Virus record (IMG/VR): IMGVR_UViG_2667527976_000007
Length of the DNA: 34,515 nt
Direction: 5' to 3' (one strand)
Source of the DNA: a virus
Lineage: Duplodnaviria; Heunggongvirae; Uroviricota; Caudoviricetes
Shown: positions 1 to 32,497 of the stretch, piece by piece
How the letters are laid out: each line of letters begins with the position of its first letter
Numbering within the stretch: the first letter of the stretch is position 1
Program-made: the position numbers and the translations under genes
The notes under the pieces: generated by a model
Databases searched by the model: none
What the model saw: the letters and a program-made list of their open reading frames with translations, nothing else
What the model was told of the DNA's origin: nothing

Positions 1-510
1 ATGTCTTCGGATGCTGATGCTCACAAAGTGGGCTTAATCCCCGTCACCCTGATGGTGTCGGGGAATATTATGGGGTCAGGTGTTTTTCTGTTACCTGCAA
101 ACCTGGCCTCCACTGGCGGGATTGCTATTTATGGATGGTTGGTGACGATTATCGGTGCGCTGGGGCTCTCGATGGTATACGCCAAAATGTCGTTCCTCGA
201 CCCAAGTCCTGGTGGTTCTTACGCTTACGCCCGCCGCTGCTTTGGCCCGTTTCTCGGTTATCAAACCAACGTCCTCTACTGGCTGGCCTGCTGGATCGGC
301 AATATCGCCATGGTGGTCATTGGCGTAGGATATTTAAGTTACTTCTTCCCGATTCTGAAAGATCCATTGGTATTAACCATCACCTGCGTCGTGGTGCTGT
401 GGATCTTCGTCCTGCTGAACATTGTCGGTCCGAAAATGATCACCCGCGTACAGGCCGTTGCTACCGTGCTGGCGCTGATCCCCATCGTCGGGATTGCCGT
501 ATTTGATTAG
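1..510 (+). pseudogene. adiC: adiC (arginine:agmatine antiporter) 5' fragment, disrupted after ~codon 168 by prophage insertion
   Basis: Translation 1..510 matches the N-terminus of E. coli AdiC as I recall it, through '...[12 protein letters not shown]', then diverges ('D' + stop). Full AdiC is ~445 aa, so about 60% of the gene is missing downstream. Confidence 0.85.
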
Positions 511-673: not shown

Positions 674-1063
674 TTACTCTTTTTTCTCCGTATCTGCATC
701 GGGTTCATCAGCAAATAGCTTGCCCTGCATCCGATCCAGTTCTTCTTTTCTTACCCGCTTAACCACGCTGTAGACCCACTGAAGCGAAACACCAAATTTG
801 CGGGCCAGTTCGTGGTGGTTGCGTCCGTTAAACTCCCTGAAGATTTCCCGGTCGCGCTGACTGACCTTCCATACCATGCCCATCGGGAAATAAACGTTTT
901 GCCCGCCCCAGACCTGCATCATTCGGTTCGCGACGGCCTGACCAATCTGGTCGGCAACTTCGGGCTCAATATCAATAATCTCGCGAACGGTCTCAGAGGT
1001 ATGCTGTGCCAGTTCCACCAGGAGTTCCGGCCCCTTACTTCGAAACTGATTCAGGTCGCTCAT
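674..1063 (-). CDS. Mor/C-family transcriptional activator (middle/late gene activator)
   Basis: 129 aa, size and C-terminal HTH-like region typical of Mu Mor/C proteins; last gene of the early operon, directly after the GemA-like gene as in Mu. Confidence 0.65.
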   Translation of the reverse strand: MSDLNQFRSKGPELLVELAQHTSETVREIIDIEPEVADQIGQAVANRMMQVWGGQNVYFPMGMVWKVSQRDREIFREFNGRNHHELARKFGVSLQWVYSVVKRVRKEELDRMQGKLFADEPDADTEKKE

Positions 1064-1692: not shown

Positions 1693-1912
1693 TCTGAATA
1701 CCTCCCCATTCGATATGAATATTACGGGCAGCAATGACAGGGTCGTTATTCCACCATGCACCTGACATGTATTTTTCAACCTGTTCGCGTCCGGCAATAA
1801 CACCAATTGTGATCCCCGGCCTGACGTTCTTAAAAAAGGCGCGGGCAAAAAGGTATCTGGCAGATATTCGGCAGGCTTTTAATTTCCGGCTTTTACCTGA
1901 TAGCGTAATCAT
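1682..1912 (-). CDS. hypothetical early protein (76 aa)
   Basis: ORF whose start overlaps the stop of the upstream DUF2786-like gene (coupled arrangement); no recognisable domain. Confidence 0.35.
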   Translation of the reverse strand: MITLSGKSRKLKACRISARYLFARAFFKNVRPGITIGVIAGREQVEKYMSGAWWNNDPVIAARNIHIEWGGIQNDY

Positions 1913-5692: not shown

Positions 5693-7462
5693 TCAGTTGC
5701 CGTTAACAATGCTGATAACACTGCTGCGGGCCGGTGTGGTCAGCGTGGCCATGACTTCATCCAGTGCGGCTTCCGGTACGCCGTCCGGGTACTGTGCCGT
5801 TAACTGGCGGTAATGTTCCGGCGTCCAGGTAAGGCCGTCGGCGCTGAACTTATCGCGCAGGGCTTTCGCGGCCTCCACATGAGTCATGGGACGTTGTTCA
5901 GTGCGCGGCCCGCGTACGTCAGAGGCCTGACCACGCTTCGGCATATAGGCCGGAAGTGTGGTGTCGTCGATATGTTTATACGGGTCAAGCCGCCCGCCGA
6001 ACGGCAGCGCCTTCGCCTTGCGTGCGGCGGCTGCATCTGCGGCGTTGTCTGTACCGGTAACCAGCGCTTCGGTTTCTTTTGCCGCCATCTGTGCCGGGGT
6101 TTCCGGCAGGGCTTTGTAACTTTCGCCAAATACCGCCGCGCCTTCAGCAAAGCCAAACTCGTTCTTTCTGACCTCTTCGACCAGGAAGAACGTCTCGTGG
6201 CCGTCCTCACCGGTCAGAACCACCTGTGCCACATCGCTGCGCCATGGGTTACGGGTAATCATCAGTTTTTCACCAACCAGTACGCCCGGTACCGTTGATA
6301 CGTCAAATTCAGTGCCCCGGAACGAGACACGAAGTTTTGGCGTGACTTTGCGGAGTTCTGGTGCCGCCACAGCCAGTTCACGACATACCTCAACGGAAGG
6401 CGCTTTTTTCAGCTGCTCAGCAGTAATCTTCAGCCAGATATCCGTGCGGGTTTTACCGTGGCGGCTGTGAACAGCCGTGGCGTTAAAGTGGCTGCGCCAT
6501 TTCGCGGCCAGCGCGTTGAGTTCTTCCAGACTGTGAACCGGCCGGAACTTCAGACCCGGCTCCAGCTTGCGTTCGATAATGTCACGCGCCTTTTCCACCT
6601 GTCCGGTGGCGCGGGCGTTATGCGGCTTGTGCGCTATCAGGTCAATGCCCAGTGAGCGGCACATGTTTTTCGTCATACCCGCGGTGTTTGCCGAACCGGG
6701 GTCGAGATAGAGTATTTTTGGCACGCCGTGCAGCACGTCTGCGCCGCCACGCTCCTGCATGGCGTTGATAAGCACAGAACACAGGTTCTCACCGGATTCC
6801 GCACCCGTCACATACTCAACGTAAATCCAGCCGCTGGCATGGTCGGTAATCTCGTAACTCCACACGCGGTCACTGGCGATACGGGCAAGGTTAGCGGGTT
6901 TGTTCTTGTAGAACTTCGCGCTGTCCATCACCTGCAGCCCTTTGTGTCCATTGCTCAGGTAGTAAAGCGTGCAGAGCGAGGCATCAATCTGCCAGACATG
7001 ATTGGGATGCAGACTGGCCACTTCGGTATGCGGCGCAGGAGCATCCAGTTGTTCCGGGTGCAGGCCATAGTTACGCAGGGCACGACTGATGGCATCTTCG
7101 GACAACGGGAAAAACTCACCGGTGGTTTCATCTGTTCTGCCTGCGGAGATAAAGCCGTTAGCCCGCAGGGTTTCCACTGCATCCGCGATGGAATAGAGAC
7201 GCTTACCGTTCTTGCGGGTGGCCTCACGCAGTGTGGCAGATATCAGCGCGGCTTCGTCGCGGGTCAGGGCGCTGCGTCCGGCATCAGCGCGTTTTTTGCG
7301 TTTATCAGTCACAGAGACCTCCTTCAGCCTGCGCAGCAGAGTGGCGCGGGACATGCCAAGTTCAGCACAGGCAGCGTCGTATATTGCACCGCGTTTACCA
7401 TGCCCCGCGTCACGTGCCGCGCGGGCGACATAAACCAGTCGTTCAGTCAGGGCAGCATTCAT
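5693..7462 (-). CDS. MuA-like DDE transposase
   Basis: 589 aa; N-terminal DNA-binding region then an rve/DDE-type core; gene order ner-(x)-A-B as in Mu. Confidence 0.8.
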   Translation of the reverse strand: MNAALTERLVYVARAARDAGHGKRGAIYDAACAELGMSRATLLRRLKEVSVTDKRKKRADAGRSALTRDEAALISATLREATRKNGKRLYSIADAVETLRANGFISAGRTDETTGEFFPLSEDAISRALRNYGLHPEQLDAPAPHTEVASLHPNHVWQIDASLCTLYYLSNGHKGLQVMDSAKFYKNKPANLARIASDRVWSYEITDHASGWIYVEYVTGAESGENLCSVLINAMQERGGADVLHGVPKILYLDPGSANTAGMTKNMCRSLGIDLIAHKPHNARATGQVEKARDIIERKLEPGLKFRPVHSLEELNALAAKWRSHFNATAVHSRHGKTRTDIWLKITAEQLKKAPSVEVCRELAVAAPELRKVTPKLRVSFRGTEFDVSTVPGVLVGEKLMITRNPWRSDVAQVVLTGEDGHETFFLVEEVRKNEFGFAEGAAVFGESYKALPETPAQMAAKETEALVTGTDNAADAAAARKAKALPFGGRLDPYKHIDDTTLPAYMPKRGQASDVRGPRTEQRPMTHVEAAKALRDKFSADGLTWTPEHYRQLTAQYPDGVPEAALDEVMATLTTPARSSVISIVNGN

Positions 7463-8387: not shown

Positions 8388-8696
8388 TTACAAACGACTA
8401 CCTGAAATAACACGTTGGTTGATTTCGTTAATGCGATCCTGTGCACGTGCCATCTCGTTACTGTGGGCCATGGCGATCTGCAGCAACTGGATGCCTGGTG
8501 CGAAACGCCCGTTTTCTAGTTTCAGAGCCAACCCTTCTTCAATGAGCGTGTTAAGTGCCCGGTTGATGTTTGCCGGTGATTCGTGCAGTGCAACCGCTAG
8601 TTCCCCGTTAGAAACACCGTTCAAAGCGTGGCCACGTAAGGCCTTAAGAACGCGCAAAATACGGGTACCTGAGCTTGATGTATTTGGTTTATTCAT
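8388..8696 (-). CDS. small HTH DNA-binding protein (102 aa)
   Basis: Winged-helix-like segment 'GVSNGELAVALHESPANINRALNTLIEEGLA'; second gene of the early operon. Confidence 0.5.
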   Translation of the reverse strand: MNKPNTSSSGTRILRVLKALRGHALNGVSNGELAVALHESPANINRALNTLIEEGLALKLENGRFAPGIQLLQIAMAHSNEMARAQDRINEINQRVISGSRL

Positions 8697-8917
8697 GACG
8701 CCTCCTTAAGGATACCGGGGGTAACTTCTTTACCTATTGCAACCGATAGATCTCGCAAAATCCGATAAGTCAAACGACCGCGAGGTAGTTCACTTTTACC
8801 AGCCCAGCGACTGACTGCCTGGGTGACTGTTCGTGGTTCATAGCCCGCGTTAAGCGCGAACTGGCGCAAGCTACTGCCTCGTTCAACCAGCCGTGCCCGA
8901 ACTTGTTGTTTGTTCAT
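8693..8917 (-). CDS. Ner-like DNA-binding regulator
   Basis: 74 aa from the ATG at 8917; '...LRQFALNAGYEPRTVTQAVSR.W.....L' resembles the Mu Ner/Nlp family; first gene of the leftward early operon, divergent from the XRE gene. Confidence 0.65.
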   Translation of the reverse strand: MNKQQVRARLVERGSSLRQFALNAGYEPRTVTQAVSRWAGKSELPRGRLTYRILRDLSVAIGKEVTPGILKEAS

Positions 8918-9005
8918 ATGCACCGTGTTCCTGTTAGGTTATGATGTACTCTATTGGGTCTATTGTACACACCCAAATGAGTGTGTCAAATTGAGATATG
9001 TTCAA
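8918..9005. promoter_or_regulatory. divergent promoter/operator (switch) region between Ner-like and XRE-type genes
   Basis: 88-bp AT-rich spacer between divergent start codons; contains inverted repeat ACACAC(8967-8972)/GTGTGT(8981-8986) with an 8-bp spacer and a TGTAC direct repeat. Confidence 0.5.
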
Positions 9006-9483: not shown

Positions 9484-10491
9484 ATGTCTGAGCAGACCAT
9501 TGAAGTTAAACACGTTGTAGTTCACATTTTAGACAAACAACAAAATGGAGACGCTTCTGAGAGATTGAGTCCTGAAGAAGGTCTAGTTACTGAAGCCTCC
9601 CAGCGCCTTATAAACGATATTTGTGCAAAATATGCAGGACGCACAGGTAAAGGTTATGGCTATTTTGAAGGCGATACGGATAACTATCCTATGGAACGAA
9701 TGGCTGGGGACTTTCTCGAAGGTGTTGATGATTTCTACCAAAGTTCCTGCCGAATGATGCATCACCTGACGGAACGTTCTCAGCGAGAAAACATGGCTAC
9801 TGGTGGTTATGTTCTTTTTGCAAATATCGTGATAGGACACAATGAACACCTGTTGATAGCTATTGTAAGCGCTACCATTGGATCCACTGTCACAGATGAT
9901 TTTAACATCCAAGATAGTACCTATCTTGATATTGCTAAGCTGCGTATGGCTGGGCGCATTGACTTAACCGCGTGGGAAAGTGGCGCAGAGCGCTATATCA
10001 GTTTTCTTAAGGGGCAAGGTAATGTTTCAAACTATTTTAAACAGTTCCTCGGCTGTAATGATGTCTTAATCGCCAAACGAGAGTCTGAAAAGTTACGTGA
10101 CGTTTTAAAAGCATTTGCGGCAGAGAAAGGACTTGACGGCGCTGAAAAAGATGCATTTCTTAAGAGTGCGTTTGAACACTTACATGCACTAAGTAAGGCT
10201 GGTGAACCACTTAGTCTTGAAACCCTTGTTAATGCCATTTGGCCCCAGGCTCCCGAGGAGTTATCTGGTAAACTTGCTGCTGAAGAGTTGGAGTTATCGG
10301 ATGGCTTCGTTCCTGATGGTCGAGTCATTCGGGCTCTGGTATCTTTTAAAGGCAAGTCTAAATATTGGGAACTTAAGTTTGACCGGGAAGGGAAAACTGA
10401 AGGCTATATTGATTATGATCCGGAAACAAATATTATCACCCTACGTAATGTACCTGAAGAATTTAGGGAAATGTGGATGACTGAGGTTTAA
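9484..10491 (+). CDS. YejK/NdpA-like nucleoid-associated protein (NA37 family) homologue
   Basis: 335 aa, the same length as E. coli YejK; blocks 'YLDIAKLRMAGRIDLTAWESGAERYISFLKG' and C-terminal 'YDPETNIITLRNVPEEF' parallel YejK blocks as I recall them; AAGGTGG RBS upstream; markedly AT-rich. Confidence 0.6.
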   Translation: MSEQTIEVKHVVVHILDKQQNGDASERLSPEEGLVTEASQRLINDICAKYAGRTGKGYGYFEGDTDNYPMERMAGDFLEGVDDFYQSSCRMMHHLTERSQRENMATGGYVLFANIVIGHNEHLLIAIVSATIGSTVTDDFNIQDSTYLDIAKLRMAGRIDLTAWESGAERYISFLKGQGNVSNYFKQFLGCNDVLIAKRESEKLRDVLKAFAAEKGLDGAEKDAFLKSAFEHLHALSKAGEPLSLETLVNAIWPQAPEELSGKLAAEELELSDGFVPDGRVIRALVSFKGKSKYWELKFDREGKTEGYIDYDPETNIITLRNVPEEFREMWMTEV

Positions 10492-10493
10492 TC

Positions 10494-11699
10494 GTGGCGA
10501 TTTCATTTGAGATGCTGACAGATCTGTATCGTCGTATGGAATTCCAAGAGGGGTTTCGTGTCGGTTCGCTGTTGCTCTTAGATCAGTCCGATTGTGATCT
10601 GGTTGATACTTTGCTTGATGATCCTCGTGAATATGGTCTTTCTATTGATACAGGCACTATCGCTCCAGGTAACACGATCATCCTACGTGTGACGTCACCA
10701 CGGAGTGGACTGGGACTTGTGTTTTCCACCCATGAAAAATTGCTAAATGCTCCAAAGCATCAGTGCCTTGAGCCAGCTAATTACTTCATCCTAGAAACAA
10801 AGTTTCGTAATGATGATGAAGATATCCCCGTTTTCATCAGCAACTACCGGAAGATTCTCGAGTTCGTTAACCTGCTAAAAGAGGCCGCGGCCTACTTTGA
10901 TAACTCAACTTGTCAGTTAGTTTTTCTGAAAAAAGAAGTTATCAAGCTATTACCGCACTTCGCTGCAGAAAATGTACAAAATTTGCAAAGAGAGTATCTT
11001 GATAACCTTATAGCTTGTTTCAATGATGATACCCATAAGGATCAGAAGCTAGATATTCTGATTGAAAGTATCCAAGCAGTTAGTGATGGAATTGATTCAC
11101 CTCTAGTATTCGCTTATTTACTGGACAATATTCAGCGTCTGCATGAAAAGTTTCTGAAAGGGTATCGTATCTACTCTTCTGGATTCTCTTATGACAAAGT
11201 AATGGATCAACTGCGTGCTGCAAAAGTCGAAGAAATGGGTAAAATCCACAAAGCGTTTTCAGATATCCAGAACCATATACTTGGCATTCCTGTTGCCTCT
11301 GTTATCGTAGCTACCCAATTCAAAGTGGCTACGAAATGGTCAGGCCAAGGGATAACAAACACAATAATTCTTCTGGGATGCATTTTTGCTGCAACGTTAA
11401 TCTGGCTGGCACTTTCGAACCAGATGCAATCTATAAAGGCCTTAGGCGAAGAAATTGAATACAAAGAAAAACAGATTAATAAGGAATATTCCTTCATTAA
11501 AGATGACGTGGCTGGTGTATTTAGCAGTATTTCTGCGCGACTAGACACGCAGAAACGTACGTTCTGGATTATACGTGGTGTTCTAGTTATGGGAATTATT
11601 ACCGCTATCACTGTTTATTTTTGGTACACAAAACCAGCCCTTGACTTCATGCAGTACTTGATTCACTGCATGAAGTCTTACTATTCGGTCAAAAGTTGA
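10494..11699 (+). CDS. uncharacterised protein with soluble N-terminal domain and two C-terminal TM helices
   Basis: GTG start 2 nt after the upstream TAA (translational coupling); predicted TM helices at about residues 287-307 and 357-377; no recognisable catalytic motif; AT-rich. Confidence 0.55.
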   Translation: MAISFEMLTDLYRRMEFQEGFRVGSLLLLDQSDCDLVDTLLDDPREYGLSIDTGTIAPGNTIILRVTSPRSGLGLVFSTHEKLLNAPKHQCLEPANYFILETKFRNDDEDIPVFISNYRKILEFVNLLKEAAAYFDNSTCQLVFLKKEVIKLLPHFAAENVQNLQREYLDNLIACFNDDTHKDQKLDILIESIQAVSDGIDSPLVFAYLLDNIQRLHEKFLKGYRIYSSGFSYDKVMDQLRAAKVEEMGKIHKAFSDIQNHILGIPVASVIVATQFKVATKWSGQGITNTIILLGCIFAATLIWLALSNQMQSIKALGEEIEYKEKQINKEYSFIKDDVAGVFSSISARLDTQKRTFWIIRGVLVMGIITAITVYFWYTKPALDFMQYLIHCMKSYYSVKS

Positions 11700-12459: not shown

Positions 12460-12564
12460 AATCTGTAAGCCTTTTACAATTATAAAAAATATGGCAGGCT
12501 AGTCTGGTCTCGCGAGACTGACTGAACCTCGGTCGGCTCACAGCGCATTCCTGTGGGGCGATGG

Positions 12565-12602
12565 CCAGCCCGGTGTTCGGGTACCGGGCTGGTCGTTCTT
12601 TC
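12565..12602 (+). terminator. putative intrinsic terminator/insulator hairpin
   Basis: 9-bp stem CCAGCCCGG / CCGGGCTGG (12565-12573 and 12584-12592) with a 10-nt loop, followed by T-rich TCGTTCTTTC. Confidence 0.35.
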
Positions 12603-12706
12603 AAAGTCATCATGCAGTGCACGTTTACATCTTCACTATTAACGCTGTTTAAAATCCGTATCCCGCCACATTTGTGATGCTGTCTCCACCAAACGAGGAG
12701 ACACAC

Positions 12707-17193: not shown

Positions 17194-18689
17194 TGGCGAG
17201 GGGTATCTGGGTTTCACCCGATGAATTTGTTGCTTTTTCTGAGCCTCAGAAATCACTGACCGCGCAGATTGCCTCCCGCAGCCGCGCGATCGACTTTTAC
17301 GGACTGGGCATGTATCTGCCCAATCCTGATCCCATTCTCAAGGCTCAGGGACGGGATATCCGTATCTACCGCGAACTGCGCACCGACCCGCTGGTCGGGG
17401 GCTGTATCCGCAGACGTAAAGCAGCGCTTAAATCGCTGGAGCGTGGACTGGAGCGTGGTCACGCCTCTGCCCGGGTCTTCCGTTTCATCCGCGACATGCT
17501 CGACGATCTGGATCTGTCCCGCATCATCGGTGAAATGAGCGATGCCGTGCTCTACGGGTATCAGCCCTGTGAAATCATGTGGGGCCGTTCGGTCAGGTCG
17601 TGGGCGGTGACGGATATTGTCGGCAAACCGCCTGAGTGGTTTCAGTTTGATACGGACAACTGCCTGCGCTTCCGGGCGCGTGATGCGGGTGTGGAGGGTG
17701 AGCTGCTGTCACCGTCAAAATTCGTGGTGCCGGCACAGGATGCCTCGTATGACAATCCTTACGGTTTCCCGGACCTGTCCATGTGCTTCTGGCCGGTCGC
17801 CTTCAAGAAAGGCGGGATGAAATTCTGGCTCCGCTTTGCCGAAAAGTTTGGCTCCCCGTGGGTGATCGGTAAGCACCCGAGGGGTGCAAATGATGCAGAG
17901 ATTGAAAAACTGCTGGACTCCATGGAGCAGATGGTGGAGGACGCGGTGGCCGCCATCCCCGATGACAGCAGCATCGAACTCAAAGCCGCGGATGGTAAGG
18001 CGGACAGCAGCGAGGTATTCCGCGAGCTGATCACACTGTCACGCAGTGAGATCTCCATTGCATTACTCGGTCAGAATCAGACCACGGAAGCGAACAGTAA
18101 CAAGGCCTCTGCACAGGCCGGGCTGGAGGTAACGGCTGATATCCGCGATGCGGATGCGGACATCATTCAGGCGGCAGTGAATCAGGTCATCAGAACGGTG
18201 GTCACCCTGAACTTCGGCGATGTGCCGTGTCCGGTCTGGGCCATGTGGGAACAGGAGGCCATTGATGACACCCGTGCCACCCGCGACGAAAAACTCACCC
18301 GGGCGGGTCTGCGTCTGACCCCGCAGTACTTCAAGCGTGAGTACCAACTGCAGGACGGCGATATTGACGAGACACCACCGTCGGAACGACAGAATAACAT
18401 GCTGCCGCTGTCATTTGCCGAGGCGATTGATGCTGATATTCAGGCTCAGCAGCAGCTTGACGACGCGCTGGACATTCTGATGAACGGAGGCGCGTTAAAT
18501 GGCACGCTGGAACCCGTCCTGGCACCTCTGTTCAGGCGGGTCGAAAATGGGGTTAACCCGTCTGAGCTGCTGGGCGAACTGGCGGAGCTCTACCCTCAGA
18601 TGAACACGGACGATCTGCAGGAGCGGCTGGCCCGCATTCTCTTTGTGACAAATATCTGGGGGCGTCTGCATGAGCGTGACAACGGCTGA
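17193..18689 (+). CDS. portal protein (Mu gp29 / DUF935-like)
   Basis: 498 aa; follows TerL with overlapping stop/start; size and order as in Mu. Confidence 0.75.
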   Translation: MARGIWVSPDEFVAFSEPQKSLTAQIASRSRAIDFYGLGMYLPNPDPILKAQGRDIRIYRELRTDPLVGGCIRRRKAALKSLERGLERGHASARVFRFIRDMLDDLDLSRIIGEMSDAVLYGYQPCEIMWGRSVRSWAVTDIVGKPPEWFQFDTDNCLRFRARDAGVEGELLSPSKFVVPAQDASYDNPYGFPDLSMCFWPVAFKKGGMKFWLRFAEKFGSPWVIGKHPRGANDAEIEKLLDSMEQMVEDAVAAIPDDSSIELKAADGKADSSEVFRELITLSRSEISIALLGQNQTTEANSNKASAQAGLEVTADIRDADADIIQAAVNQVIRTVVTLNFGDVPCPVWAMWEQEAIDDTRATRDEKLTRAGLRLTPQYFKREYQLQDGDIDETPPSERQNNMLPLSFAEAIDADIQAQQQLDDALDILMNGGALNGTLEPVLAPLFRRVENGVNPSELLGELAELYPQMNTDDLQERLARILFVTNIWGRLHERDNG

Positions 18690-19493: not shown

Positions 19494-19952
19494 ATGGCTT
19501 CCGATAACCTGGTCAGTATCACCATTAACGATAAATCCCTGCGCCGGAGCCTCCGTGCGCTGGATCTTGCTGCCACAGACCTGGAGCCCGCGATGCGCAA
19601 AATTGCCGGAACCCTGCTGGCGGAAACACAGTTTAACTTTCTTGATGAGGGGCGTCCGGGGTGGATGCCCTCGCTGGCAGCGGAAGAGCGTGACGGGCAG
19701 ACACTGCAGGATACCGGGCGTCTGATGGGGTCAGTATCAACCGACCATGACGACCGGCAGGCTGTTGTGGGGACCAACGTTGTTTACGGTGCCATTCACC
19801 AGTTCGGGGGTAAAACGGGGCGTAATGAGTCTGTTGAACTTCCGGCCCGCCCGTTCCTGCCGGTGACGGGGGATGGAGAACTACAGCCTGAAGTGGTAAT
19901 CCCCATCCTCGATACCATTGTCCGCCATCTTGAATCAGCGGCCCGTCGCTGA
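19494..19952 (+). CDS. Mu G-like virion morphogenesis protein
   Basis: 152 aa; position after F and before I as in Mu. Confidence 0.6.
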   Translation: MASDNLVSITINDKSLRRSLRALDLAATDLEPAMRKIAGTLLAETQFNFLDEGRPGWMPSLAAEERDGQTLQDTGRLMGSVSTDHDDRQAVVGTNVVYGAIHQFGGKTGRNESVELPARPFLPVTGDGELQPEVVIPILDTIVRHLESAARR

Positions 19953-19998
19953 GTTTTCTCTCTTCAGGCGGGTGATTTATCATTGCCAGCGAATGAGG

Positions 19999-20040
19999 GG
20001 CTGTATTACCTTTATAAAGGCTTTACAGCCTCTGTTTTAT
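19999..20040 (+). terminator. putative intrinsic terminator downstream of the G-like gene
   Basis: Stem GGCTGTA (19999-20005) / TACAGCC (20024-20030) enclosing an internally palindromic CCTTTATAAAGG, followed by TCTGTTTTAT. Confidence 0.45.
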
Positions 20041-20166
20041 AACCGCCTCCGGTTCACCGTATTGCTTTCCCTGTCCTTCTCCCCTGATGTTTTCTAAAGC
20101 AGATTAAAATCGCCGGGCCTGCATTTCTCACAAACTGTCTCCGACAACATAACGCGGGACAGCAAA
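20041..20166 (+). promoter_or_regulatory. putative late promoter region upstream of the I-like gene
   Basis: ~125-bp non-coding gap before the I-like gene, the position where Mu carries a C-activated late promoter; no motif confirmed. Confidence 0.35.
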
Positions 20167-21282
20167 ATGTCAGCCATTCACATTTTTAAAGCCGGTACTC
20201 ATACCGATATGCACGGCAAAAAACTGCCGTTCACGCCAGACGATCTTGCCGCCTGCGTGAAAGCCTATGACCCGTCCGTCCATGAAGCACCACTCGTGAT
20301 TGGTCATCCCAGAACGGAAGACCCGGCGTGGGGCTGGGTGAAAGCCCTGTCGCTCAGCGGCGTCGATCTGATGGCAGAGCCTGCCCAGCTGGACCCGCAG
20401 TTTGCTGAGATGGTCACCGACGGACGATTCAAAAAAGTGTCCGCCTCTTTCTACCTCCCGGATTCACCGTCCAATCCGAAGCCCGGCGTGCTCTACCTGC
20501 GCCATGTGGGCTTTCTCGGGGCACAGCCACCTTCCGTCAAGGGGCTGAAACAGGTGTCCTTCAGTGAGCAGGAAGAAGGTGTGGTGGAGTTCGCCGACTG
20601 GCAGGCCATCACGAATGCCTCCCTGTGGGGAAAGCTGCGCGATTTTCTGATCGCCCGCTTCAGTCTGGACGAAGCAGAAAAAGTCCTGCCGGAATGGCAG
20701 CTCAACAATCTGCGCGAAGAGGCGTACCGCGACACACCGTCGCAGGATGCAGCAGGTGCGCAATTCAGTGAGACAGGCCAGGTGCCGTCTTCCGCAAGTA
20801 ACGAGGAATCATCGATGACAAAAGAAGAGATTGAAGCCCTTCAGGAGGAGAACCGCCGCCTGAAGCAGCAGGCTGCTGATCGCGATGCGCGTGATGCACA
20901 GGTCAGACAGGAGCAACTGCATAAGGACAATGTGGCCTTTGCAGAAAAACTGGTCGCAGAGGGCCGTCTGGCTCCCCGCGCATCCTCCGTGGTGGTTGCC
21001 CTGCTGGATGCCGTCGCCGGTGGCGACAAGCCGGTGGAGTTTGCTGAGGGGGAAAGCCGCACACCGCTGGCCACCGCCTTTCGTTCATTGCTCTCCGACG
21101 GGGAGCCGGTGATGAATTTCGCCGAACAGGCCACAAAAGAGCGTGTCGGCGACACGGTGAAGGTGGATGTGGCAGAGTTTGCGGAAGCCGATCCTGAGCG
21201 TCTGGCCCTGCATCAGAAAGCAGTGGCCCTGTCCAAAAAAGAAGGCATCAGCTATGAGGCTGCTGTCGCACGCTGCCTGTAA
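20167..21282 (+). CDS. Mu I-like head protease/scaffold protein
   Basis: 371 aa; N-terminal protease-like domain and acidic/coiled-coil C-terminal half; directly precedes the major capsid gene. Confidence 0.7.
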   Translation: MSAIHIFKAGTHTDMHGKKLPFTPDDLAACVKAYDPSVHEAPLVIGHPRTEDPAWGWVKALSLSGVDLMAEPAQLDPQFAEMVTDGRFKKVSASFYLPDSPSNPKPGVLYLRHVGFLGAQPPSVKGLKQVSFSEQEEGVVEFADWQAITNASLWGKLRDFLIARFSLDEAEKVLPEWQLNNLREEAYRDTPSQDAAGAQFSETGQVPSSASNEESSMTKEEIEALQEENRRLKQQAADRDARDAQVRQEQLHKDNVAFAEKLVAEGRLAPRASSVVVALLDAVAGGDKPVEFAEGESRTPLATAFRSLLSDGEPVMNFAEQATKERVGDTVKVDVAEFAEADPERLALHQKAVALSKKEGISYEAAVARCL

Positions 21283-25989: not shown

Positions 25990-26011
25990 AGGGGCTCCGG
26001 CCCCTTCTTCT
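25990..26011 (+). terminator. putative intrinsic terminator after the tube region
   Basis: AGGGGC (25990-25995) / GCCCCT (26000-26005) stem with TCCG loop, followed by TCTTCTT. Confidence 0.4.
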
Positions 26012-26080
26012 TAATCTCCTTTAATATCCGTCACGCGCTTCTCCCGACATACTGCCCTGAACTTACACAGGAGCACAATC

Positions 26081-26573: not shown

Positions 26574-29264
26574 ATGTCGGGACAGTTTTCAGTCGGCGTT
26601 GTTATCGGCGGGATGATTGGTAGCACATTCCGTTCTGCAATGAGCGGTACCCGCCGTGCGCTTGATTCCCTGAGCGATACCTCACGCCGCCTGCAGGAAC
26701 GTCAGAACGCTTTAACCCGTGCAACAGAACGTTATGGTCAACTGGGTTCTTCCCGGATGCAGCATCTCAACAGCGAGCTGCTGCGGGTAAGCCGCACCAT
26801 GGAGCAAATTGAGCGCCAGCAGCGCCGTCTGTCAGCGGCATCCGCTACCAGTGATGAGCTGAAAGCTAACCGCATGGCGCTGTATGGTCAGGGGATTGAA
26901 GCGTATGGCATGGCACAGACTGTTTATCATACGGTTTCCCCTGCCGTTCAGCAGTCCATGTCTTTTCAGGACAAAATGATTGATATGTCGATCACCGCAA
27001 AATATGACAATAAAACGCGGGATGGACTTGCCGGACAGATAAAAGGCTGGGCGCTTAAATACAATCAGTATCAGGATGAGCTGCAGGAGGCGGTGGGTTC
27101 ACTCATCAGCGACAATATTGATAATGTGTCAGATATCGGTTTTCTGATGCCGGATATTGCCCGCGCGGCAACGGCAACACGCACGTCTGCTCAGGACTGG
27201 GCAAAAGTGGCCGCAGTCTGGCAAAACTCCCTGAAAGGTGCGGCCAGAGATTTTGGTGCCGTTCAGAATATTATGGCTTATGCCGGTGACCAGGGGTCAT
27301 TTGAAATCCCGGATCAGGTCAAGTGGATGCAGTCCCTGGCCCCAATGATGGCGGGTATTGCCAGTGGAAAAGAGGCTGTTGCTGAAATCGGGGCCAGTCT
27401 CCAGATAGCAAAAATCGGTGCAGGTTCCACCGACGAAGCAGCCAATAATTTTAAAAACTTTCTTACCAAAATTTTTGCCCGCGATACTCAGAAACAGTTT
27501 GCTGATCTGGGTATTGATTTGCAGGGATCTATTGCGAGTTATAAAGCTGCGGGGATCTCTCCGATTGAAGGGATGTTGAGTGTTATAGAACGTTACCTCA
27601 ATGCCAAAAGCCCCGAAGCGCTGGCCGGCTTCAAATCAGCCATGAAAATAAAGAATGATACGGCAAGAGATGAGGCACTTCAGGCTCTGGCGAAAAACTT
27701 TGGTCTGGGCGATATGTTCGCGGATATGCAGGTCATGGCATTTATCCGCCCGATGCTGGCCAACATGGACAGATATCGAGAGATCCGTGCCGGTGCTCTC
27801 AGGGCTGCGGATAACGATTTGCTTGCCAGTGCTTATGATCAGCGGCTGAAATCTCCCCTTGAAGCCACTAAAACACTTATGGTCAGCAGTCGCGATCTGG
27901 CAATTACGCTGGGCGATCAATTAGCTCCATCTTTTATTTCTTTGACTCAGGAACTGCTTCCACTCATTCAGGGGGCAAAACACTGGGTAGCGACTCACCC
28001 GCAATTTGTCAGTGGGGCTTTTAAGCTCATCAGTGCGCTCCTTGCGATTAAGATAGCGACTGTTGGTCTCAAACTGGGGCTGAATCTCCTTATTTCCCCC
28101 TTTGTAAGTGTCTGGAAAAATGCTGTTTTACTTCGGGCCAACTGGCTTCGTCTGTCGCTCGCACTGGGGCAAGGCGGTAAGCTCCGCTGGCTGGTGACCG
28201 GATTTAGCGCCGTCGCCAGAGGAGCCAGAACACTGAGTGGCGTGCTCTCCGAGGGGCTGGTTCGCGGAATTATGCTCGCCGGACGTGCTGTTCTCTGGAT
28301 TGGACGTGCGCTGATGATGAATCCCATCGGTCTCGTTATCACCGCTGTCGCGGCAGCAGCTTACCTTATCTACCGCAACTGGGGGGCAGTCAGTGGCTGG
28401 TTTAAACAGCGCTGGGCAGACATTCAGGAAGCCTTTAACGGCGGCATTGTGGGAATTGGTAAGTTACTGATTAACTGGTCGCCGGCAGGCCTGCTCTATA
28501 AAGCCTTTGCAGCTGCGCTGAAATATCTTGGTGTTGATCTGCCGGCAAAGTTTACCGACTTCGGTGGCCATCTTGTCGATGGTCTGATTAACGGTATCAA
28601 AAACAAATGGGAGTCGCTCAAATCCAGTGTAACCGGAATGGGTGACAGCATCAGTGGCTGGTTCAGCGAAAAGCTGGGCATTCATTCGCCGAGCCGCGTG
28701 TTTATGGGCTTTGGTGACAATATCGCGCAGGGGGCCGCCATTGGCCTGCAGCGGACCACTCCGCTTGCAGCTCTGGCCGGGCAGCGAATGGCCAGTGAAC
28801 TGCTCCCCAGAATGCCCGTGAGCATCCAGGGGCCAGAAATACGGGATAACACTTCAGGTGTTCGCTTCAGTATGCCGTTGCCCGATATCAATGGGTTTAT
28901 GTCGTCTGCTAAAAATGCGATCGGAGCCGTAATCAATAGTTTGTCTTCCATGCCCGCTATTCCGCTCTCCACCCGGGCATCGATTTTACCAGGGCAACGT
29001 CTGGCAAATGAGATGACACCGGATGTTCCCCGTATCCCCTCGCCTGAAATCCTGGCTGCCGGATATTCAGGCCGTGGTGCAGCTGCAACCAGCGGTGGAA
29101 CGTCTGGTGGTATCCAGGTCAGCTTTAATCCTCAGTTTTTCCTCAATGGCAGGGAAACCACAGCGCCTGCAGGACTGACTGGTGCCCTGAATATGAGTCT
29201 GCATGAGCTGGAAAAAATGCTGGAGCGTCTGCTGGCTCAGAAACAACGTAAGGAGTACCGCTGA
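26574..29264 (+). CDS. tail tape measure protein
   Basis: 896 aa, helical N-terminal half, hydrophobic central segments, Gly-rich C-terminal region; follows the chaperone pair. Confidence 0.8.
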   Translation: MSGQFSVGVVIGGMIGSTFRSAMSGTRRALDSLSDTSRRLQERQNALTRATERYGQLGSSRMQHLNSELLRVSRTMEQIERQQRRLSAASATSDELKANRMALYGQGIEAYGMAQTVYHTVSPAVQQSMSFQDKMIDMSITAKYDNKTRDGLAGQIKGWALKYNQYQDELQEAVGSLISDNIDNVSDIGFLMPDIARAATATRTSAQDWAKVAAVWQNSLKGAARDFGAVQNIMAYAGDQGSFEIPDQVKWMQSLAPMMAGIASGKEAVAEIGASLQIAKIGAGSTDEAANNFKNFLTKIFARDTQKQFADLGIDLQGSIASYKAAGISPIEGMLSVIERYLNAKSPEALAGFKSAMKIKNDTARDEALQALAKNFGLGDMFADMQVMAFIRPMLANMDRYREIRAGALRAADNDLLASAYDQRLKSPLEATKTLMVSSRDLAITLGDQLAPSFISLTQELLPLIQGAKHWVATHPQFVSGAFKLISALLAIKIATVGLKLGLNLLISPFVSVWKNAVLLRANWLRLSLALGQGGKLRWLVTGFSAVARGARTLSGVLSEGLVRGIMLAGRAVLWIGRALMMNPIGLVITAVAAAAYLIYRNWGAVSGWFKQRWADIQEAFNGGIVGIGKLLINWSPAGLLYKAFAAALKYLGVDLPAKFTDFGGHLVDGLINGIKNKWESLKSSVTGMGDSISGWFSEKLGIHSPSRVFMGFGDNIAQGAAIGLQRTTPLAALAGQRMASELLPRMPVSIQGPEIRDNTSGVRFSMPLPDINGFMSSAKNAIGAVINSLSSMPAIPLSTRASILPGQRLANEMTPDVPRIPSPEILAAGYSGRGAAATSGGTSGGIQVSFNPQFFLNGRETTAPAGLTGALNMSLHELEKMLERLLAQKQRKEYR

Positions 29265-32095: not shown

Positions 32096-32149
32096 GCTTT
32101 TTAAACGCCTTTAATATCAGCGTTCCCGCACGGGGGCAATACTGCCCCC

Positions 32150-32497
32150 ATGAAAACAACCTCAGTATTCTGGCAACCGACCCTGCAGGCTCCCGGCGAA
32201 ATTGTCCGGGGGCTGGATGATATCCGGCAGGCGATTCAAATTATCCTGCGGACTCCCCGCGGCAGCGACCCGCATCGCCCGGAGTTCGGCAGCAATCTGC
32301 ATCTTTATATCGACTGGCCTGTAGACCGGGCCATTCCGCATGTGGTGCGCGAATCCGTCGATGCCATCCGGCGCTGGGAGCCCCGCTGCCAGCTTATGTC
32401 AGTTAAACCCGCCGTCGACGGCGAACATCTTACGCTCCGGGTGAGCTGGAAAGGCTCAGACGGACAGACCCGGACTCAGGAGCTGCTATGGCGCTGA
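32150..32497 (+). CDS. baseplate wedge protein (GPW / gp25-like)
   Basis: 115 aa; size and position of the gp25-like baseplate protein. Confidence 0.6.
   Translation: MKTTSVFWQPTLQAPGEIVRGLDDIRQAIQIILRTPRGSDPHRPEFGSNLHLYIDWPVDRAIPHVVRESVDAIRRWEPRCQLMSVKPAVDGEHLTLRVSWKGSDGQTRTQELLWR

Follow-up and report, generated by a model that had tools for sequence, protein, structure and literature searches.

The Mor-binding dyad of the phage Mu promoter Pm extends from -51 to -36, with its centre at -43.5, and Pm has no -35 element (PMC4287176). Proteins of the Mor/C family touch two neighbouring major grooves immediately upstream of the -35 region and can bind as tetramers, nearly three helical turns then being covered (bioRxiv 2025.05.02.651988). 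The late promoters of Mu have also been described (PMC2582627). According to reviews, gyrase sites lie between genes G and I in both Mu and FluMu (PMC2628397; PMC10052514), and the central strong gyrase site (SGS) of Mu is needed for efficient replicative transposition (PMC10052514; PMC3820752; PMC2628397). In the database record of Mu, the gyrase cut is annotated at 17879/17880, inside the G-I gap. The terminator of the Mu lys transcript has reportedly been mapped between G and I as well, by Zha, Zhao and Howe.

Here we analyse the corresponding gap in a stretch of viral DNA of 34,515 nucleotides, hereafter called the window, together with the same region in related phages and prophages.

Identity and gene layout of the prophage

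Sequence comparison identifies the window as a transposable E. coli prophage of the BcepMu type (genus Bcepmuvirus). Around the gap, it shares 99.5% identity with Escherichia phage PhiKM, a member of the same genus, and about 86% with Klebsiella phage KP12. The prophage was found in 638 of 5426 complete E. coli genomes (~12%), including that of the ST131 strain EC958. Its left end lies near base 506, within the host gene adiC, and its right end lies beyond the window. Early genes are carried by the minus strand and comprise a DDE transposase (5693-7462), GemA and a Mor-family activator. The late genes are on the plus strand, in the order holin, terminase, Mu-type portal, F-like, G-like, gap, I-like protease/scaffold and capsid.

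674-1063, minus strand: gene of a transcription activator of the Mor/C family (Pfam PF08765 Mor, E = 1.3e-43)

The product of this gene shares 30% identity with Mu Mor and 37% with Mu C, and RefSeq labels its counterpart in strain EcPF7 as a Mor family protein. It is presumed to be the activator of the late promoters described below.

The gap between the G-like and I-like genes and its hairpins

The G-like ORF (Pfam Phage_tail_S) stops at 19952 and the I-like ORF starts at 20167, leaving a gap of 214 bp (19953-20166). A preliminary description had singled it out as the sole sizeable gap of the head module, and the ORF ends bear this out; it is the only gap larger than about 15 bp in the late region from 12.7 kb to 25.98 kb. 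When aligned with KP12-type relatives, conserved blocks alternate with diverged sequence and two single-base indels are seen. The gap is therefore not coding, and a small ORF in it (19918-20097; a 41-aa ORF is annotated in KP12) was ruled out on the same grounds. A search of 19800-20300 against Rfam gave no match. The upstream part of the gap contains the following features.

19935-19962, plus strand: small hairpin T1 over the G-like stop codon, followed by GTTTTCTCTC; weak terminator candidate from the terminator scan
19967-19987, no strand assigned: conserved block GGCGGGTGATTTATCATTGCC, identical in the window and in the KP12 type and kept in Photorhabdus and Xenorhabdus
19996-20033, plus strand: nested hairpin T2 (inverted repeat I1), a terminator-like stem-loop of the upstream late operon (-20 kcal/mol, z = -4.3)
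20034-20042, plus strand: T-rich tail GTTTTATAA of T2, read from the sequence

In T2, an outer stem of 10 bp and an inner stem CCUU/AAGG are separated by a 3x3 internal loop, and the hairpin closes with a UAUA loop. None of 200 shuffled sequences folded as stably, and the 3' end of T2 lies 133 bp upstream of the I-like ATG. The preliminary description had reported a hairpin with an internal perfect palindrome followed by a T-rich tract, and this is what we find at these positions. The tail reads G-UUUU-A-U (20034-20040), a U-tract that is short and only moderate. It is not kept in KP12-type relatives, which have CGCTTTGCA instead and show no T-tract after the stem (CGCUUUGC). The T1 stem (19935-19952) is not significant alone (-8.8 kcal/mol, z = -1.5). 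T2 plausibly acts as an intrinsic terminator in this phage. Given that its U-tract is short, and missing in the KP12 type, termination may be partial, or may take place at T1 or depend on Rho.

A predicted Mor-type late promoter upstream of the I-like gene

Positions 20093-20143 very likely constitute a late promoter of the Mor type, analogous to Mu P_I, as judged from the following elements.

20093-20110, plus strand: predicted binding site of a Mor-type activator, TCTAAAGCAGATTAAAAT, the highest-scoring site of the window (26.9 bits)
20131-20136, plus strand: -10 hexamer CAAACT, exactly 23 nt past TTAA
20143-20144, plus strand: predicted transcription start of the I-like (head) operon, 7-8 nt past the hexamer

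TCTAAAGCAGATTAAAAT comprises the half-sites CTAAA (20094-20098) and TTAA (20104-20107), whose midpoint falls at about -42.5 relative to the predicted +1; neither KP12 nor Photorhabdus nor the close relatives show any change in this site. A spacing of one helical turn between the half-sites fits the two-groove contact of Mor/C proteins. CAAACT is a weak hexamer and a -35 element is absent: the hexamer 17 bp upstream of the -10, AATCGC, matches TTGACA at 0 of 6 positions. A generic sigma-70 scan of the gap found no promoter on the plus strand. The U-tract of T2 is poor, and read-through from the upstream operon is therefore plausible.

The position of the -10 was examined in 49 distinct regions upstream of I, taken from 80 loci in other species. 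In all but one of them (48/49), the second base of the hexamer located 23 nt past TTAA is A and the sixth is T. In beta-proteobacterial relatives the ATG follows the hexamer by 6-7 nt, as expected for a leaderless mRNA, and this distance independently fixes the hexamer as the -10. The block TTTTCTAAAGCAGATTAAAA is conserved with the KP12 type and recurs as GTAAAGCCGATTAAAAG in the GC-rich Burkholderia phage BcepMu. The final base of the TTAAAAT motif is G and not T in the KP12 type, showing that this base is not essential. From this arrangement we infer that the promoter depends on the activator and that transcription starts at about 20143.

Recurrence of the motif ahead of four late operons

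Searching the window for blocks of the TTTTCTAAAGCAGATTAAAA type returned copies only in the gaps that precede late operons. These gaps share a bipartite motif composed of TTAAwAT, exactly 20 nt, nAnnCT and then G. The pattern WTTAAWAT-N20-NANNCTG has five matches in the window where 0.00 are expected, and four of the five are on the plus strand, directly upstream of the lysis (12648), head (20103), tail (26020) and baseplate (32110) operons. With a relaxed pattern, exactly the same four sites were obtained in KP12 and three in BcepMu, in which a fourth site, with the variant right half-site TGAA, was located by eye. An activator-site matrix was built from 30 distinct sites, the 99.9th percentile of the window being -0.7 bits. 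The four sites rank first in the window with 18-27 bits, true sites reaching 18-29 bits overall, and in BcepMu the sites come first as well. Besides the promoter of the I-like gene, the predicted late promoters are the following.

12637-12681, plus strand: sister late promoter A (lysis operon), ATTAACGCTGTTTAAAAT, 20 nt, GATGCT, from motif and matrix
26009-26053, plus strand: sister late promoter C (tail operon), CTTAATCTCCTTTAATAT, 20 nt, CATACT, from motif and matrix
32099-32150, plus strand: sister late promoter D (baseplate W operon), TTTAAACGCCTTTAATAT, 20 nt, AATACT, from the motif

A strong hairpin (12560-12597) lies upstream of promoter A, and promoter C is preceded by a terminator hairpin (25990-26005) and then UUCUUCUU. 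At promoter D the ATG stands 7 nt past the hexamer, implying a leaderless mRNA. The motif and the comparative evidence strongly support the activator-dependent late promoter that the preliminary description had proposed as a candidate upstream of the I-like gene, and its parallel with Mu P_I holds. That description had also suggested a comparison of motifs with the region upstream of the lysis genes and with the Mu late promoters. The motif is indeed shared with the former; on the Mu side, the C sites differ and it is Pm that matches.

A hairpin in the leader of the I-like gene

20135-20162, plus strand: inverted repeat CTGTCTCCG / CGCGGGACAG, from the -10/discriminator to the Shine-Dalgarno sequence of the I-like gene (-10.7 kcal/mol, z = -4.5)

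The arms of this hairpin occupy 20135-20143 and 20153-20162, and 0 of 200 shuffled sequences were as stable. It begins with the CUG inside the -10 hexamer and ends with a CAG just upstream of the AUG. A stem is present at the same place in most of 25 distinct relatives that have a leader (z <= -2 in 21 of them). Stems of different sequence are found at this position in the Photorhabdus, Serratia, Pantoea-symbiont and Pseudomonas lineages and at Mu P_I, and promoters A and C of the window have a similar leader hairpin. RNAalifold applied to a MAFFT alignment of the leaders returned no structure, the arms being misaligned, and folds of the individual sequences were used instead. The predicted start coincides with the 3' end of the 5' arm, so that only read-through RNA could form the stem covering the ribosome-binding site. 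Shielding of the I-like ribosome-binding site by such a fold-back, which hinges on the predicted start, is conceivable at odds somewhat short of even.

A conserved palindromic core

20009-20026, no strand assigned: perfect palindrome CCTTTATAAAGG plus CTTTAC, with the family-wide core TTTATAAA(GGCTTTA)

CCTTTATAAAGG is a perfect 12-bp palindrome (20009-20020) within T2. Its core TTTATAAA was found in the I-upstream gap of 56 of the 80 related loci, from both gamma- and beta-proteobacteria (Enterobacterales, Burkholderiales, Pseudomonas, Iodobacter). The BcepMu genome (36.7 kb, 63% G+C) and the EcPF7 locus (41 kb) each contain it once. Across the family the consensus reads gC-TTTATAAA-GcCTTt, flanked by AT-rich blocks that recur symmetrically on both sides at intervals of about 10 bp. 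Some lineages have only one arm of the palindrome, or an arm that is flipped, and keep the AT phasing. The core is invariant, whereas the enclosing stem is absent or weak (~-5 kcal/mol) in the Photorhabdus/Xenorhabdus, Erwinia-type and Pseudomonas lineages, and a T-rich tail follows the core in only a minority of lineages. The terminator reading of the preliminary description is thus supported for the stem itself, which is terminator-like, and is incomplete, as many relatives that keep TTTATAAA have no T-tract or outer stem. Because these two parts are lineage-specific, termination alone is insufficient to account for the conservation of the core.

In the window, the palindrome is centred about 128 bp upstream of the predicted start, and some 85 bp separate it from TCTAAAGCAGATTAAAAT further downstream. 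Among relatives, the spacing between TTTATAAA and the promoter box forms a near-continuum from 72 to 123 bp, which rules out a fixed helical phasing between palindrome and promoter, and it reaches 0.45-2.1 kb where genes are inserted. In the five loci that carry extra genes between the G-like and I-like genes, TTTATAAAGGCTTTA adjoins the G-like gene, 455-2097 bp from the I-like gene, and the promoter box remains at the I-like gene. On this comparative sequence evidence, the palindrome core is an element separate from the promoter. Two other roles were considered and rejected. A sigma-70 promoter at the TATAAA of the palindrome would have no -35 element on either strand, and the upstream sequence is not conserved. 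An operator for the phage repressor was discarded since the early control region (8680-8930) contains no similar sequence.

Comparison of the core with gyrase sites

The preliminary description had overlooked that the central strong gyrase site of Mu lies in the same gap. Expressed as a fraction of genome length, the core is located at 0.510 in BcepMu, at about 0.513 in EcPF7 and at about 0.519 in the window prophage, and the gyrase site of Mu at 0.487. The first 13 nt of GGCGGGTGATTTATCATTGCC resemble the reverse complement of the Mu gyrase cleavage core GCGGcTGATTTtAT, a resemblance that is not significant and serves only as a lead. Two other similarities are likewise leads only, many lineages having been inspected: GCGGGTGATTT matches the Mu core at 10 of 11 positions, and the 9-mer CAGCCGCAC is common to Mu and Pectobacterium prophages. 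Smith-Waterman comparison of the Mu gap with the window gap gave a score at chance level, equalled by 65 of 1000 shuffles. TATAAAGGCTTTA fits the IHF consensus WATCAANNNNTTR at all specified positions but one. We also computed a surrogate gyrase score from a 133-bp consensus (Sutormin et al. 2019), in one variant with base matches and in another with the GC pattern, and rejected it as it did not rank the Mu site among the top sites of the Mu genome. For A/T periodicity (10-11 bp), the gap ranks within the top 0.1-0.2% of the window, and the KP12 gap takes rank 1 for a span of 105 bp. This measure is weak, the Mu gyrase site itself reaching only the top 0.4-1.3%.

To our knowledge, Pato's work raised the question of whether a central site is needed beyond Mu and left it open for the BcepMu family. 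Oram and Pato are said to have found that gyrase cleaved the central site of a Mu-like prophage of S. Typhi CT18. This site reportedly was no substitute for the gyrase site in Mu. The S. Typhi CT18 prophage is reportedly a relative of BcepMu (Summer et al. 2004).

The core is deeply conserved and its function can only be proposed. By analogy with Mu, an architectural role resembling that of a gyrase site is our leading idea, put forward tentatively.

Discussion

We propose that two late operons meet in the gap at a boundary of the Mu type, T2 ending the upstream unit and an activator-dependent promoter of the Mor type starting the downstream one. To this reading we assign a probability of roughly 0.7. 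The mRNA of the first late operon, which covers the lysis, terminase, portal, F-like and G-like genes, would end at T2, possibly with the help of T1. The Mor-family activator (674-1063) would bind TCTAAAGCAGATTAAAAT, through half-sites one helical turn apart and centred near -43. Once bound, it would recruit sigma-70 RNA polymerase to the -10 CAAACT without a -35 element, and the I-like and head genes would be transcribed from about 20143. The I-like gene might then be translated mainly from promoter-initiated RNA, with read-through RNA folding over its ribosome-binding site; we would not quite put even money on this step. TTTATAAA(GGCTTTA) would be a separate DNA-level element at the end of the G-like unit, for which an architectural role at the genome centre is a speculative assignment. 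Both flanking operons being presumably controlled by the same activator, the gain from insulating them from each other is not evident.

Other explanations of the gap have to be set against this one. The weak -10 hexamers without -35 elements, together with a hairpin whose poor U-tract makes read-through plausible, would suit a gap without any promoter, the head genes being read through from the lysis-operon promoter and the repeated motif serving another purpose. Yet the four copies of the motif stand at operon starts only, 48 of 49 lineages keep the 23-nt spacing together with the A (position 2) and the T (position 6) of the hexamer, the ATG of leaderless lineages is found exactly at the expected start, and sequence and spacing are close to those of the characterised Mor site of Mu Pm, which makes a gap devoid of promoter highly improbable. 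The preliminary description had considered that the palindrome itself could be the binding site of the activator. It could serve the I promoter in this way, or act as an auxiliary or decoy site: its arms hold GTAAAG/CTTTAC, the same left half-site as the I promoter, BcepMu has GTAAAG-N5-TAAAG in its palindrome and GTAAAG-N5-TAAAAG in its promoters, the palindrome scores of 7.5 bits (window) and 6.9 bits (BcepMu) both exceed the 99.9th percentile of the genome, and Mor/C tetramers can cover nearly three helical turns. These scores are nevertheless far below the 18-29 bits of true sites (18-27 bits for the four sites of the window). There is no -10-like hexamer at 23 nt on either strand, the distance to the I promoter varies (72-123 bp, and up to 2.1 kb with insertions), one arm is reversed in the P. 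putida-type lineage, and the three other late promoters have no such element upstream. We consequently place the activator site at 20093-20110 and regard its location in the palindrome as improbable.

Two further readings concern the nature of the conserved core. It may be nothing other than the stem-loop of an intrinsic terminator, conserved through terminator constraints or shared ancestry. A stable hairpin with a U-rich tail does exist in the window, in BcepMu, in a Serratia prophage and in the Pantoea-symbiont group; the element always follows the G-like gene and insertions are always downstream of it, as for a terminator; hairpins are also found upstream of promoters A and C; and a terminator is reported at the equivalent place in Mu. 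Terminators, however, usually conserve structure, whereas here the AT core is invariant and several lineages have lost the outer stem. The T-tract is confined to a minority of lineages and missing from the KP12 type, and termination leaves unexplained an 8-bp word made only of A and T that occurs once in a genome of 63% G+C. We therefore consider a pure terminator unlikely. Alternatively, the core region would be the BcepMu-family counterpart of the Mu SGS, and DNA gyrase or a host protein that bends DNA sharply, such as IHF, would bind it. Its place would be at the apex of a supercoiled loop, where it would aid the synapsis of the ends for replicative transposition, any terminator function being secondary. 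The gyrase cut of Mu in the homologous G-I gap is in line with this proposal, as are the position of the core at 0.51-0.52 of genome length in BcepMu, EcPF7 and the window prophage, its single copy per genome and its conservation across gamma- and beta-proteobacterial hosts. The AT blocks spaced by about 10 bp and symmetric, the A/T periodicity of the gap and the near-match of TATAAAGGCTTTA to the IHF consensus point the same way, and the loss or flipping of arms with AT phasing maintained suits indirect readout better than a base-specific dimer. The cleavage said to occur at the central site of the S. Typhi CT18 prophage would also agree with it. Against it, the similarity to the Mu site is not significant, the surrogate score misses even the Mu site and is hence uninformative, and the periodicity measure has modest power. 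The central location is not independent evidence given the conserved gene order, the AT-only core does not show the G/C preferences of quinolone-induced cleavage sites, and the S. Typhi site reportedly failed to replace that of Mu. A gyrase-site counterpart thus remains a minority reading, although one to which we give some weight.

Returning to the operon boundary that we favour, the four late promoters, the activator box and the operon boundaries together form a map that makes prophage induction and expression directly testable. The Mor/C paradigm of Mu is extended to a family whose late operons all seem to be under one activator acting on a Pm-like box. With the conserved palindrome there is a defined site to mutate when asking if transposable phages outside Mu depend on a central architectural or gyrase site, and the leader hairpins suggest a simple way of shielding phage late genes from read-through translation. 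Taken further, these two elements lead to a joint hypothesis that we hold to be doubtful. TTTATAAA with its phased AT flanks would be an undescribed central site of the BcepMu family, a counterpart of SGS in another sequence, recognised by gyrase or a DNA-bending protein and required for efficient end synapsis and replicative transposition in gamma- and beta-proteobacterial hosts alike, and the anti-Shine-Dalgarno arms would limit translation to activator-initiated transcripts.

Comparison with known systems

The leader hairpin recalls the insertion sequences IS10 and IS50, in which fold-back inhibition of read-through transcripts was reportedly described by Davis, Simons and Kleckner and by Schulz and Reznikoff. 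There too, an inverted repeat is said to have its 5' arm ahead of the native transcription start and its 3' arm across the ribosome-binding site, and the inhibitory stem to form only in transcripts coming from outside. Here, in contrast, the gene belongs to a phage late operon and is not a transposase gene, and its start is predicted, not mapped. Moreover, the upstream transcript is co-regulated here, so that the selective gain is not evident.

In the G-I region of Mu, the flanking genes match (G-like virion morphogenesis, I-like protease/scaffold), the gap is of similar size (196 bp, against 214 bp here) and likewise near the genome centre, and a terminator-like hairpin is followed by an activator-dependent promoter, as predicted here. 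The identical hexamer CAAACT followed by G is found upstream of Mu gene I, where we read it as the -10 of P_I, and a hairpin likewise runs from the CUG in this hexamer to a CAG before the ribosome-binding site. Both gaps have a pyrimidine-rich tract upstream of the activator site. In contrast, the overall similarity between the two gap sequences is not significant. The Mu C sites consist of ATAAC/ATAAT motifs and then C-rich sequence, whereas the activator site here is CTAAA-N5-TTAA; the AT-rich element is a palindrome around TTTATAAA here and TTTAAAC repeats in Mu; and a gyrase site is only a candidate here.

The closest likeness of the promoter is with Mu Pm. We presume that the +1 of Pm is at about 9223 on the Mu genome, from our reading of its -10 and from the start reportedly described by Stoddard and Howe (1990). 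With Pm placed in this way, Mu has CAGTAAAGCCGG-TTAA-23 nt-TATCCT and the window has TCTAAAGCAGA-TTAA-23 nt-CAAACT. The half-sites and their spacing are nearly the same in Mu (GTAAAGCCGGTTAA), BcepMu (GTAAAGCCGATTAA) and the window (CTAAAGCAGATTAA). In all of them TTAA is separated from the -10 by 23 nt and a -35 element is absent, and in Mu and in the window the activator belongs to the Pfam family Mor. The two systems differ in that the activator of this phage is only 30% identical to Mor, and in that the motif is found here ahead of four predicted late operons, structural and lysis, and not of a single middle operon. Finally, where Mu has two Mor/C proteins, this phage has one homologue.

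Surroundings of the palindrome core in related phages

The region around TTTATAAA, the palindrome core of the gap separating the G-like and I-like genes, was compared among related loci. Five relatives (L046, L060, L062, L081 and L086) carry between their G-like and I-like genes one to three added genes each. The insert lies exactly in the space that separates TTTATAAA from the Mor-type promoter serving the I-like gene. By this comparison of sequences, the interval from TTTATAAA to the promoter is a recurrent point of cargo-gene insertion. On the other side of the element, the beta-proteobacterial relatives possess a second conserved block, about 35 bp upstream of TTTATAAA, in place of which the enterobacterial relatives have GCGGGTGATTTATCATTG, located 31-41 bp upstream of TTTATAAA. 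The beta-proteobacterial block is found as follows:

L009 18700-18720, and homologous positions in L042-L059: conserved block CAACGATAGCC

Words resembling the palindrome arms and core are also present in CTGTAAGCCTTTTACAATTATAAAAAATATGG (window 12464-12495), within the divergent region that separates the methylase gene from the lysis operon.

Leaders of the late promoters and additional pattern matches

A hairpin linking the -10/discriminator to the Shine-Dalgarno region is present at two other late promoters of the window, namely promoter A of the lysis genes (12680-12705, z = -3.0) and promoter C of the tail genes (26053-26075, z = -2.1), as well as at P_I of phage Mu (L091 18022-18052, z = -4.3). 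Its occurrence at these three promoters suggests that Mu-like late operons employ such hairpins as a common device. At promoter D (window 32099-32152), the baseplate W-like gene begins with an ATG 7 nt downstream of the -10 hexamer AATACT, and its mRNA is thus predicted to be leaderless. The promoter D ATG lies at a leaderless distance from the -10 in Klebsiella phage KP12 and Burkholderia phage BcepMu as well, and the same holds for the ATG of the I-like gene in many beta-proteobacterial relatives.

The late-promoter pattern has two extra matches in the window:

27422-27455, minus strand: antisense match within the tape-measure gene
1850-1883, minus strand: match within a gene on the opposite strand, early region

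Searching KP12 with the late-promoter pattern recovered neither match, and both are therefore probably due to chance.

Insertion site and cargo of the prophage

The first 168 of the 445 residues of the arginine/agmatine antiporter are encoded at window positions 1-504 (match to NCBIfam NF007929, E = 4e-102), and phage sequence starts at about position 506 with TGATTAGAC. Judging from this homology, adiC (window 1-505) is the insertion site of the prophage, and the host strain should have lost arginine-dependent acid resistance.

A cargo at 9484-11699, flanked by the repressor gene and a Dam-like methylase gene, is lacking from the otherwise near-identical prophage of strain EcPF7. Its first gene encodes an NA37/YejK-type nucleoid-associated protein (Pfam PF04245, E = 1e-80) and is followed by a 401-aa ORF, which matches the anti-phage family NF053869 DS1_2 below threshold (76 bits for a cut-off of 315). 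This cargo may constitute a defence module.

Comparison with the G-I gap of Mu and Mu-like prophages

In distant Mu-like prophages, the same gap contains TTTAAC repeats spaced 10-12 bp apart. The G-I gaps of Mu (L091 17890-17940) and of the Mu-like E. coli O157:H7 prophage (L092 1480-1535) have TAAACCGGTATTTAACGG / CTAACCTGTATTTAACGGG in common. The O157:H7 copy runs on into TTTAACGGGCTTTAAAATC, from which no -10 is found at the 23-nt distance and which resembles the activator box of the window.
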